64,000 bases of DNA, taken from positions 64,001 through 128,000 of the IMG/VR virus record IMGVR_UViG_3300045988_168162. One strand, 5' to 3'. Below the pieces are notes generated by a model. It was given only the letters and a program-made list of their open reading frames with translations. It was not told where the DNA came from and did no database searches. Within the stretch, counting starts at the first letter, position 1; each line of letters opens with the position of its first letter. This DNA comes from a virus. The translations under genes were made by a program, and so were the position numbers. Below, one piece after another: positions 44,249-46,111 of this stretch.

Positions 44249-44407
44249 ATGACTTTACAGATTACAGGAGACGCAAAAGAAATAGCCGAATTGATTGAGA
44301 TGTTACAAAAGCAGTGCACTAAAGATGCCAAATTGAGAAATTATGTTTGCGGTTGCATCGAGAATAATAGTGGATCAATCAAATTGTCAAGACAAAATCT
44401 CGGGTGA
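44249..44407 (+). CDS. small hypothetical protein (52 aa)
   Basis: GAGGAGG SD 7 nt upstream; found by hand; 3' end overlaps the convergent gene. Confidence 0.4.
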   Translation: MTLQITGDAKEIAELIEMLQKQCTKDAKLRNYVCGCIENNSGSIKLSRQNLG

Positions 44408-45046
44408 TTCAATCCATTGGGCATGTGTTTCATCAATTACTAGAACATCACAGCTCTCGCTAATTGATTGCAACCAGCCGTTATAATATTGCAATTTGGA
44501 TGCTGTAGCGTTTATAAAACGCAGGTAATTTACACCTTCTTGAAGTGAAAATAAAAGACAATTAGAATTTATTTGCTGTTGTGACATAAGCTCAAGTGCT
44601 ATTTTATTATCTCCTATTGCACTTATGCATATCCCATTTTCGTTTGTAATTTCTTCTATTTTATCGTCTACCAGCGTTGTTTGAAACACTTCACATATAC
44701 CATTTTTTACTGCTGCACCGATCATAATTATATTTTGGCTTGTTGCATGTATTTTCAATTCAGTTTTCAAAGCACTTAGTTCTTCTTGAATAGAAATAGA
44801 CGAGGCTGAAAGGCTAAGAAGAAATTTCTTTATTATAGCAGATATTGGTGAACCGTCATCAGCTATAAGATTCCCTGTGTATGCTATTCCGTGTCCACTT
44901 TTAGTTGTAAACACTTTTTGTTGGTAATTCAAAGATGAATAAAGAAGTGCTTGTCCATCTGGCGTTGGTTTTGGATTTAGCGTAAGCCGCTTGTCTGCTG
45001 TCATTACAATTCCATATTGGTTTGCTAATACAAGTACAAGAGACAT
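44387..45046 (-). CDS. proteasome-beta/HslV-like Ntn-hydrolase-fold protein
   Basis: N-terminus MSLVLVLANQYGIVMTADKR resembles TTIVxxxxxxGVVLAADxR: Ser2 as the nucleophile position, Asp18 (= D17 after Met removal), later QQKVF lysine. Confidence 0.4.
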   Translation of the reverse strand: MSLVLVLANQYGIVMTADKRLTLNPKPTPDGQALLYSSLNYQQKVFTTKSGHGIAYTGNLIADDGSPISAIIKKFLLSLSASSISIQEELSALKTELKIHATSQNIIMIGAAVKNGICEVFQTTLVDDKIEEITNENGICISAIGDNKIALELMSQQQINSNCLLFSLQEGVNYLRFINATASKLQYYNGWLQSISESCDVLVIDETHAQWIESPEILS

Positions 45047-45067
45047 ATAGTATTCATCCCTTTTTAA

Positions 45068-45610
45068 TTACCATTCATACCCACAATGGTTGCAGTGGAA
45101 CTGATGCTTGATCTTCTGGCTAAAGATACCCAGCATCAGGAAATTGCCAGCCTTTTGAGTGACCGTAATTGGTTTGATGTCTGTGCTATGACATGTAGGG
45201 CAACGTGGACGAGTAGCTTCGCGTTCTGTACGTTCACGCTCGCGGCGGGCTTGGGATTCTTGCTGTGTATTCTGTTGTTGCTTTTCTTTTAATTGTCTTG
45301 TTCTAACATCAAACAATCCTTTGTTGAAGTCGGAACTATTATACACATAAATATTTCTTAGATACTCATCAATAATTGGACTCTCTGTTTCGTTGTCTAT
45401 GTTCGCAATTGTATACTCTCTTTTGGAGATTTCTTTAAGTATCTGGTTTTCGCTTTTTGATAGAATTTCACAGAACTGTTGTTGTGTTAATAATTTTATT
45501 TTTGGATTATGACAAAACCAACATTCATGTTTTTCATCCTGATCCATTGCAGTAACATCCCCACAGATTGTACATATAGACATTTGGAGAGAGTTAAGAT
45601 AATCGTCCAT
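45068..45610 (-). CDS. double zinc-ribbon protein with a Q/E/R-rich linker
   Basis: CTICG...CWFCH at the N-terminus; CPTCHS...CNHCGYEW at the C-terminus. Confidence 0.5.
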   Translation of the reverse strand: MDDYLNSLQMSICTICGDVTAMDQDEKHECWFCHNPKIKLLTQQQFCEILSKSENQILKEISKREYTIANIDNETESPIIDEYLRNIYVYNSSDFNKGLFDVRTRQLKEKQQQNTQQESQARRERERTEREATRPRCPTCHSTDIKPITVTQKAGNFLMLGIFSQKIKHQFHCNHCGYEW

Positions 45611-45628
45611 TTTATTCTCCTTTTATAC

Positions 45629-46060
45629 TTAATGCGTTATTATGAATAAACCGCCAACAAGCAGAATCAGAATGCCGACGCCACTATCGGCAGCAGACAT
45701 CGAACCCGTAAGCAACGCTAAAATTAAATAAGGAATCCCGATGATTGCCAAAATCATTATCAACCAAGTAAGGCAGCCAATAAAGTCCTTGCCGATATCA
45801 GATCTAATGTCGTCTTGTTCTCCCTTGTTTGGCGGATTGTATTGGGAATGCTGCGGCCTGTTTGTGGCTTTTGGACACTGAACCGGATTTTGTGATGTCT
45901 GAGTTTTAGGCTGTGGCATAGGAGTGTTTGTCGATGATGCATGAGTTGCATTGCTGTTTGGTTCGTTCTCCGAAAAGTTCCGATCAAATGCCTGCTTATA
46001 ATGAACATACCCATCAATGCCCTTGCCAAAGTAGCCGTAATCATCCTGTTTGCCTGCCAT
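45629..46060 (-). CDS. membrane protein (polar N-terminal half, two C-terminal TM helices)
   Basis: GGAGGG SD; LTWLIMILAIIGIPYLILALL and GVGILILLVGGLFII. Confidence 0.5.
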   Translation of the reverse strand: MAGKQDDYGYFGKGIDGYVHYKQAFDRNFSENEPNSNATHASSTNTPMPQPKTQTSQNPVQCPKATNRPQHSQYNPPNKGEQDDIRSDIGKDFIGCLTWLIMILAIIGIPYLILALLTGSMSAADSGVGILILLVGGLFIITH

Positions 46061-46102
46061 GATAATCCCTCCGTCCCAAACACAAATTATAACCTTACAA
46101 CG

Positions 46103-46111
46103 ATTATATCA
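46103..46111 (-). promoter_or_regulatory. extended -10 (TGATATAAT) for the minus-strand three-gene operon
   Basis: The reverse complement of ATTATATCA lies about 45 nt upstream of the 46060 start; the -35 is weak. Confidence 0.35.

Follow-up and report, generated by a model that had tools for sequence, protein, structure and literature searches.

Proteasome-like N-terminal nucleophile (Ntn) hydrolases beyond the proteasome and HslV are numerous and almost wholly uncharacterised. Fuchs, Alva and Lupas described 22 uncharacterised proteasome-like families, including the Firmicute clusters FC1-FC5 and the phage-borne PPH, AAH and CPH, and no informative gene context was reported for these families (Fuchs et al. 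2021, PMC8665760). Most bacterial proteasome homologues lack a propeptide, and Thr1 or Ser1 is accepted as the nucleophile (PMC8665760). A functional precedent is offered by Rrp (SP_1145) of Streptococcus pneumoniae TIGR4, a proteasome/Anbu-like Ntn hydrolase on a phage-like mobile element. Rrp is an active, rather non-specific protease that is toxic in Escherichia coli; it cleaves bL27, rescues bL27 processing and associates with ribosomes, and phage relatives of the protein have been noted (bioRxiv 10.64898/2026.08.10.744006). Here we describe Ntn219, a protein of 219 amino acids (aa; ~24 kDa) encoded at 44387-45046 on the minus strand of a 64,000-nucleotide (nt) window of viral DNA, which covers positions 64,001-128,000 of record IMGVR_UViG_3300045988_168162. 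With moderate confidence, we read Ntn219 as a phage-borne, single-gene accessory hydrolase, likely a lysogeny-phase protease that acts in phage-phage conflict.

By predicted fold and catalytic set, Ntn219 is a proteasome-β-like Ntn hydrolase. AlphaFold2 gave an unusable predicted local distance difference test (pLDDT) score of 51 from a 10-sequence alignment, so a deep alignment of 115 sequences was used instead, giving a pLDDT of 93.2 and a predicted template modelling (pTM) score of 0.90. The model follows the element order of the four-layer α-β-β-α proteasome fold, in which strands S1-S2 are N-terminal and the helices come in pairs (H1/H2 and H3/H4), with helix H1 at residues 68-78 and helix H2 at 86-100. 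An earlier reading of this DNA (the original prediction) had likened the protein to proteasome β subunits and HslV and had suggested Foldseek as a check. The top Foldseek matches of the model are solely 20S subunits and Anbu (probability 1.0, TM score 0.62-0.71), with E-values of ~1e-7 for 20S β subunits and 1e-6 for Anbu entry 5nyg. A profile of the homologues of Ntn219 (hereafter the Ntn family) matches yeast proteasome β1 in the PDB in register (E=2.4e-7). Family residue 4 falls on mature β1 residue 3, GIVmaaDsr on GVILGADSR and qKlf on DKIW; archaeal β and α subunits are likewise matched. The Pfam Proteasome family (PF00227) is reached individually by 14 of 115 Ntn members, with a best E-value of 8.6e-7.

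The N-terminus of Ntn219 reads MSLVLVLANQYGIVMTADKR. Residues Asp18, Lys44 and Gly58 align to Asp17, Lys33 and Gly47 of the proteasome, and among close relatives Ser2, Asp18 and Lys44 (within QQKVF) are invariant. Across 115 diverse members Lys44 is again invariant, and Gly12, Asp18, Arg20, Gly58, Gly145 and Asp200 are at least 90% conserved. Full-length members begin with Met-Ser (108/134) or Met-Thr (18/134), together 126 of the 134, and Ser2 is the presumptive nucleophile once Met1 has been removed. The presumptive Ser nucleophile, Asp17 and downstream Lys named in the original prediction, as well as the proteasome-like fold, are thus all confirmed by profile, AlphaFold2 model, Foldseek and conservation. 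An exhaustive profile search recovered 223 representatives of 200-260 aa, nearly all aligning from residue 1; a word-indexed search had returned 13 clusters only. The assignment of the fold is not new, because an identical protein is already annotated in GenBank and UniProt (DAD70209.1 / A0A8S5LJV3, Siphoviridae sp. ct3o911), where it was automatically named "proteasome beta type-2 subunit". This protein is publicly annotated, yet studied by nobody.

Compared with the 20S β subunit, HslV, CodW, Anbu and BPH, Ntn219 shares the α-β-β-α fold, an N-terminal Ser/Thr and equivalents of Asp17, Lys33 and Gly47, and like most bacterial homologues it has no propeptide. It differs in its low identity to proteasome β and bacterial homologues (~12-15%), in a loop insertion of ~10 residues between Asp17 and the catalytic Lys that displaces the Lys, and in being a phage-borne accessory gene. 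Some distant Ntn proteins (the remote members P0097, P0132, P0148, P0154 and P0156) carry a Cys4 zinc ribbon in the Asp-Lys loop, where Ntn219 has its insertion; a viral search with the single protein P0181 gave no matches. An assignment as HslV (ClpQ/CodW) was rejected, as there is no AAA+ gene in the surrounding island (42360-46122) and the best matches are eukaryotic and archaeal β subunits and Anbu. Assignment as a connectase (MJ0548) was likewise rejected. Connectases have no H1/H2 pair and carry two extra helices between S3 and S4 (Fuchs et al., PMC8665760), whereas the Ntn219 model has both H1 and H2, and the connectase match extends only over the first 32 residues (E=2e-4). PPH was set aside too, as it has only ~140 aa and no helix H2.

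The Ntn family resembles group II of Fuchs et al. (FC1-FC5) in its similarity to both α and β subunits. The Ntn family and the Fuchs families have in common a length of ~200-260 aa, a conserved catalytic set and the lack of any known partner or function, and the Ntn family, like the FC clusters, occurs in Firmicutes including the Bacillus cereus group. It is, however, essentially phage- or prophage-borne and extends to a Parabacteroides prophage, whereas the FC clusters have not been reported as phage-associated. A comparison by accession only found none in common between Ntn members and the Fuchs representatives (e.g. WP_075525441.1, WP_098409529.1). Rrp may be taken as the nearest functional precedent for the activity of Ntn219. 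Both are Ntn hydrolases of Firmicute mobile elements and both retrieve the identical Foldseek PDB entries 7LS6, 1IRU and 5NYG, but they are set apart by size and description, Rrp being a 44.8-kDa protein with extra domains and Ntn219 a 24-kDa protein with no extra domain.

Genomic contexts and proposed role of the Ntn family

The Ntn gene occupies at least four phage contexts, namely a gap in the tape-measure gene, the position after cro, a site beside cI/XRE at a prophage edge and the interval between tail-fibre and lysis genes. The first of these is found in SPbeta-like gut phages, whose Ntn proteins are 55% identical to Ntn219. In small temperate phages of high GC, with Ntn proteins 43% and 38% identical, the gene stands by itself next to a cI/XRE repressor. 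Remote members are flanked by tail-fibre and lysis genes in low-GC phages; others belong to prophages of the Bacillus cereus group or sit at one edge of a prophage in Parabacteroides goldsteinii. The identical Ntn219 protein is present on hundreds of metagenome contigs, and DNA and protein searches of INPHARED found nothing related to either the island or Ntn. Exchange is also evident from a mosaic breakpoint: one relative locus (relatives are designated by L numbers), L018, is 97-99% identical to the window over the left half, with an Ntn protein that is only 55% identical. Judged by this distribution, Ntn is optional and mobile, a single gene that travels as cargo in the positions typical of morons or defence genes.

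The 3' end of the Ntn219 gene is overlapped by 21 nt by a convergent open reading frame (ORF) on the plus strand, at 44249-44407. This small 'KEIAAL' ORF encodes 52 aa with the N-terminus MTLQITGDAKEIAELI, and is preceded by a strong Shine-Dalgarno motif, GAGGAGG. Its family comprises 738 clusters with a conserved 20-aa N-terminus (M-I-ITG-xKEIAAL) and a variable tail. Of 38 loci, spanning 38-55% Ntn divergence, 36 have this ORF overlapping or abutting the Ntn gene at its 3' end. It follows an intron-like RNA in SPbeta-like phages and follows cro in small temperate phages. A convergent, variable cargo always adjoins the KEIAAL ORF (L066-L084). After cro and this ORF we see Ntn with Abi_alpha (L070-72, L074), Ntn with another gene (L073), Abi_alpha alone (L080-84) or an unrelated 192-aa membrane protein (L066-69, L075-79). 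The KEIAAL ORF thus seems to form the conserved border of a hotspot at which cargo is exchanged, marking the slot rather than acting as a partner of its occupant.

The Abi_alpha protein matches the PADLOC candidate PDC-S47 at 1e-46, and AbiD (3e-85) is encoded within 3 kb of Ntn in L031. A scan of 150 non-redundant neighbours, made with no background set, found AbiD, PDC-M64, PDC-M08B and capH/capP-type regulators, as well as a type I restriction-modification system that adjoins Ntn in L049. The likeness to Abi_alpha/PDC-S47 and AbiD is one of position, in that Ntn shares with them the antisense slot after the KEIAAL ORF or lies within a few kilobases of them, and of organisation, as the abortive-infection (Abi) morons and Ntn are alike single genes that run opposite to lytic genes. 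There is no relationship of sequence or fold between Ntn and Abi_alpha or AbiD, and PDC-S47 is itself only a candidate.

In the mechanism that we propose, methionine aminopeptidase would follow its usual substrate rules in removing Met1, thereby exposing Ser as residue 1 with no propeptide to be processed. The Ser hydroxyl and α-amine, Asp17, the Lys33 equivalent and an oxyanion glycine equivalent to Gly47 would then cleave peptide or amide bonds; the catalytic set is in place according to alignment, predicted model and conservation, and hydrolysis itself may be expected. Ntn219 would be transcribed against late transcription, from its own σA-type promoter and with two unrelated passengers, and this antisense unit would be on in the prophage while the tail genes are silent. 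Ntn may be shut off when late or early transcription enters from the opposite side and crosses the KEIAAL ORF. To judge by the neighbouring genes, Ntn219 would degrade a phage or host protein and so bring about abortive infection or exclusion. A conflict role is favoured because of slot-sharing with Abi genes, tandem diversified paralogues and mosaic distribution. A role in defence, exclusion or abortive infection, which the original prediction had put forward, is plausible, and we infer it from slot-sharing with Abi_alpha/PDC-S47 and proximity to AbiD, not from the operon.

Several points weigh against this reading. Ntn219 itself falls below every Pfam, NCBIfam, PHROG and PADLOC threshold in library scans, and the connectase N-terminal model is weakly matched by 8 Ntn members. 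Members of the proteasome family may be non-proteolytic, and connectase is a ligase. Expression of the unit in lysogeny is probable on gene orientation and promoter consensus only. Prophage accessory regions also carry non-defence morons. Finally, tblastn against 50,697 deposited phage genomes found no Ntn homologue, and there is therefore no cultured system to lean on.

The antisense unit and the island that carries it

Ntn219 is the last of three minus-strand genes. It is preceded by TM143 (45629-46060, 143 aa) and ZnR180 (45068-45610, 180 aa), with intergenic gaps of 18 and 21 nt. Shine-Dalgarno motifs can be read upstream of all three, in order GGAGGG, AAGGAG and AAGGGA. A candidate promoter, based on consensus matches, lies upstream of TM143 on the minus strand at ~46131-46103, and has an extended -10 element, TTGTTC-17-(TG)A-TATAAT. 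A second TATAAT lies at ~46086-46091, and a consensus scan found a TTGACA-17-CATATT at 46178-46150. A GC-rich terminator hairpin at 44198-44225, flanked by T-runs on both strands, serves both directions: it ends the minus-strand unit after antisense passage through the small ORF, and it ends the plus-strand XRE gene. The spacing, ribosome-binding sites, single promoter and terminator make this one plausible transcription unit opposing the tail genes. These are not chance ORFs: homologues of Ntn219 number 223 representatives, and those of ZnR180 fall into 26 clusters. The original prediction had placed three minus-strand genes here with the same coordinates and gaps, within a moron-like island antisense to the structural genes, and the gene layout is exact while the island does oppose tail genes.

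TM143 has a polar N-terminal half and hydrophobic segments at approximately aa 95-118 and 123-142 by hydropathy. In ZnR180, a charged linker rich in Q, E and R connects CxxC pairs located at residues 13/30 and 137/173. The general layout of both proteins had been described before, and the descriptions hold. From alignments, ZnR180 can be divided into a variable N-terminal ribbon, a central EYLRxKYVxNxPxFxK motif, the linker and a near-invariant C-terminal ribbon, CPTCxST...GIFSQKxKHQFHCNxCGYEW. Family searches with ZnR180 gave generic zinc-ribbon matches only, and neither TM143 nor ZnR180 has a family match in Pfam, PHROGs, NCBIfam or PADLOC. The original prediction could not assign the genes to any named defence system, and a search of PADLOC-DB v2 bears this out, with no significant match for Ntn219, ZnR180 or TM143.

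Paralogues have accumulated in some relatives. Three tandem ZnR paralogues are found in L062. In the SPbeta-like phage L043 (3076-6746), the tape-measure gap contains a ZnR gene and, after it, three divergent paralogues of Ntn, of which the last is truncated at the N-terminus. Such sets point either to hetero-oligomers or to diversification in an arms race.

On the other side of the KEIAAL ORF, the plus-strand XRE cassette spans 43774-44177, with a promoter at 43774-43802 and a helix-turn-helix gene at 43845-44177 (110 aa). The promoter is a perfect σ70-type TTGACA-17-TATAAT and is accompanied by two GTTCA-N-TGAAC operators, GTTCAATTGAAC and GTTCAGATGAAC, at 43784-43795 and 43813-43824. Within the window these GTTCA palindromes are unique to the XRE promoter. 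The window shares the gene with L018 and L085/86 alone, and most relatives are without it; its insertion between the intron-like RNA and the KEIAAL ORF is peculiar to this phage lineage. It looks like a self-contained, autoregulated cassette rather than a conserved neighbour of Ntn. A role as operon regulator was rejected, as the operators occur only at its own promoter and most relatives lack the gene. For the same reasons, the adjoining XRE regulator to which the original prediction pointed gives its module no support.

The island lies between two plus-strand ORFs, an N-terminal tape-measure ORF of 1363 aa (38268-42359) on the left and a C-terminal tape-measure ORF of 1931 aa (46123-51918) on the right. 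Residues 969-1352 of the first correspond to residues 74-451 of the 1508-aa tape-measure protein (TMP) of Enterocloster phage PMBT24 (E=1e-44); in the second, aa 145-361 correspond to PMBT24 TMP 451-654 and aa 1343-1507 to 1176-1320. Both ORFs are collinear with a single PMBT24 TMP, with the junction at approximately residue 451, and therefore the island at 42360-46122 splits a tape-measure gene. This holds in all of the SPbeta-like relatives examined.

At the split point is a structured plus-strand RNA (42327-42523 and 43327-~43548), which starts 33 nt before the stop codon of the first TMP ORF, within its last 11 codons. We describe it as a divergent group I intron-like RNA, on the following grounds. 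It is 75-96% identical across relatives, in which flanking genes are ~66% identical, and it has counterparts at L002 8940-9440(-) and L007 9940-10305(-). Its fold has a z-score of -7.6 and contains several GNRA hairpins, and there are 18 compensatory pairs, from 2-3 lineages only. The C-terminal TMP codons vary so as to preserve the RNA pairing. The compact form of the RNA matches the group I intron model RF00028 over its full length, at 22.7 bits and E=0.001, below the gathering score; there is no Rfam match in the window itself. A bona fide group I intron in the TMP gene (RF00028, 59.8 bits, E=3e-14) is found at L002 9753-10113 (-) and also in L001 and L003-L005. It lies ~100 codons upstream of the island in these relatives, and the window ORF is contiguous at that position. 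The idea that the whole 3.8-kb island is one giant intron was discarded, given the lack of an Rfam match in the window, the conserved 144-aa N-terminus that the second TMP ORF has of its own, and the terminator directly 3' of the intron-like RNA in relatives.

A cassette (42524-43326) is inserted into the central hairpin of this structured RNA and contains orf94 (42572-42856) and a retropepsin-like ORF of 142 aa (42871-43299), the latter matching PADLOC PDC-M08B at 1e-7 and with sub-threshold Pfam matches. Relatives lack the cassette, have it in duplicate or have it behind the RNA, and its behaviour is thus that of an unusual mobile element resident in the intron.

Alternative explanations and wider meaning

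The three genes could form a real multi-component system, with TM143 as membrane anchor or sensor, ZnR180 as adaptor and Ntn219 as effector, which would assign roles within the three-gene module of the original prediction. Tight spacing with one promoter and one terminator in the window is consistent with this idea. So is the association of ZnR with Ntn in SPbeta-like phages, where a ZnR homologue is always upstream of Ntn on the same strand (34/34 SPbeta-like Ntn loci), often 21-25 nt away. In the closest relative islands, L085/86, the same Asp-protease cassette, XRE gene, small ORF and Ntn recur with ZnR at a spacing of 21 nt. The L085 and window Ntn proteins are 98% identical and their ZnR proteins 47%, only the C-terminal ribbon being conserved (~96%, against ~30% for the N-terminus). 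In such a system, this conserved ribbon might dock the protease while the variable N-terminal part recognises a trigger, a refinement that we regard as doubtful. A Parabacteroides prophage even has an analogous order of XRE, transmembrane (TM) protein, small CPxC...CxxCGY ribbon and Ntn. We rejected this trio as evidence of a conserved architecture, however, as homology is unsupported for both proteins: its TM protein has no similarity to TM143, and its 85-aa ribbon is not demonstrably homologous to ZnR180 (hhalign probability 9.6%).

The distribution of the genes makes a multi-component system unlikely. TM143 is absent from L085/86, and its sole other homologue among the relative loci is in L010, 5 kb away and beside a resolvase; TM143 is, on these comparisons, a window-specific add-on that heads the transcription unit. 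ZnR accompanies Ntn only in SPbeta-like phages and is missing from 38 of 72 Ntn loci, and its N-terminal part is exchanged independently of Ntn, as the comparison with L085 shows. The decisive control is a set of 79 viral loci chosen solely for the ribbon domain, independently of Ntn: an Ntn gene lies within 4 kb at 11 of these (14%) and is lacking at the other 68, which weakens the case for ZnR as an obligate Ntn adaptor. Unrelated cassettes, including opposite-strand genes, separate ZnR from Ntn in L009-L011, and Ntn-less phages have ZnR in the same island with other cargo. One such cassette, of two genes at L009 6742-7660 (-), encodes a 155-aa product with an N-terminus that may be akin to antitoxin domains of the DUF4065/'Panacea' type. 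A co-occurrence check, as suggested in the original prediction, shows the TM, ZnR and Ntn trio only in the window among related loci. The three genes assort independently, and therefore there is no conserved three-gene system; the trio is specific to this phage. A two-member alternative, in which Ntn219 and the KEIAAL product are coupled in the manner of toxin and antitoxin or as enzyme and substrate, the small protein being an inhibitor or processed peptide, strikes us as highly improbable. It would explain the persistence of the small ORF at the Ntn 3' end (36/38 loci at 38-55% divergence) and its conserved N-terminus and variable C-terminus, and Rrp-type proteases can be toxic; however, the same ORF flanks Abi_alpha alone or the 192-aa TM protein, and is therefore not Ntn-specific, and many remote Ntn loci lack it. 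For this reason we rejected the KEIAAL product as a dedicated antitoxin or substrate of Ntn.

Other alternatives concern the beneficiary of the enzyme. Ntn219 might be a lysogenic-conversion factor for the host, acting as a back-up protease, in protein quality control or in the maturation of ribosomal proteins. The rescue of bL27 processing and the ribosome association of the mobile-element Rrp fit such a role, as does the proposal by Fuchs et al. (PMC8665760), who found no AAA+ partners, of chaperone-independent clearance. Against this, Rrp is a ~45-kDa protein with extra domains and the Ntn family is of 24 kDa, Ntn is an optional cargo of patchy distribution, and slot-sharing with Abi genes and tandem diversified paralogues fit conflict better than housekeeping, so that we give the host-benefit role little credence. 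A service to the phage's own development, such as processing of the split tape-measure or other virion proteins, would account for the position of Ntn inside the tape-measure gene, always between the two TMP ORFs in SPbeta-like phages, and tape-measure proteins of other phages are proteolytically processed. We nevertheless judge this very unlikely: Ntn219 is antisense to the tail genes and has its own promoter, Ntn is missing from many phages that share the split TMP and the island, and members of the family are also found in a Bacteroidota prophage and, among unrelated small phages, in the lysogeny or early region. The cultured relative PMBT24 moreover has an intact TMP and no Ntn.

The reading of Ntn219 as a single-gene accessory hydrolase in phage-phage conflict can be taken one step further, although here we are tentative and consider the idea possible rather than probable. 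Ntn might be the effector of an unrecognised single-gene anti-phage function (abortive infection or exclusion), a Ser protease that is swapped into and out of the Abi_alpha/PDC-S47 slot of temperate phages of gut Firmicutes and Bacteroidota, silenced in lytic growth by convergent transcription across the KEIAAL ORF and perhaps tuned in SPbeta-like phages by ZnR as an adaptor whose sensing head is hypervariable.

The analysis also describes an island of hypervariable cargo that sits on a group I intron-like RNA within a split tape-measure gene, and if Ntn219 should prove not to be a defence protease, the over-interpretation of its locus as a "three-gene system" is still corrected. Among the many proteasome-like Ntn hydrolases, the family described here has a reproducible context: its genes are phage-borne and optional, lie antisense and trade places with abortive-infection genes. 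An annotation of 'function unknown' thereby gives way to a hypothesis that can be tested, and a compact enzyme of 24 kDa can be put forward for defence screens. If the defence-protease reading is true, N-terminal-nucleophile hydrolases would be a new catalytic class among anti-phage effectors.

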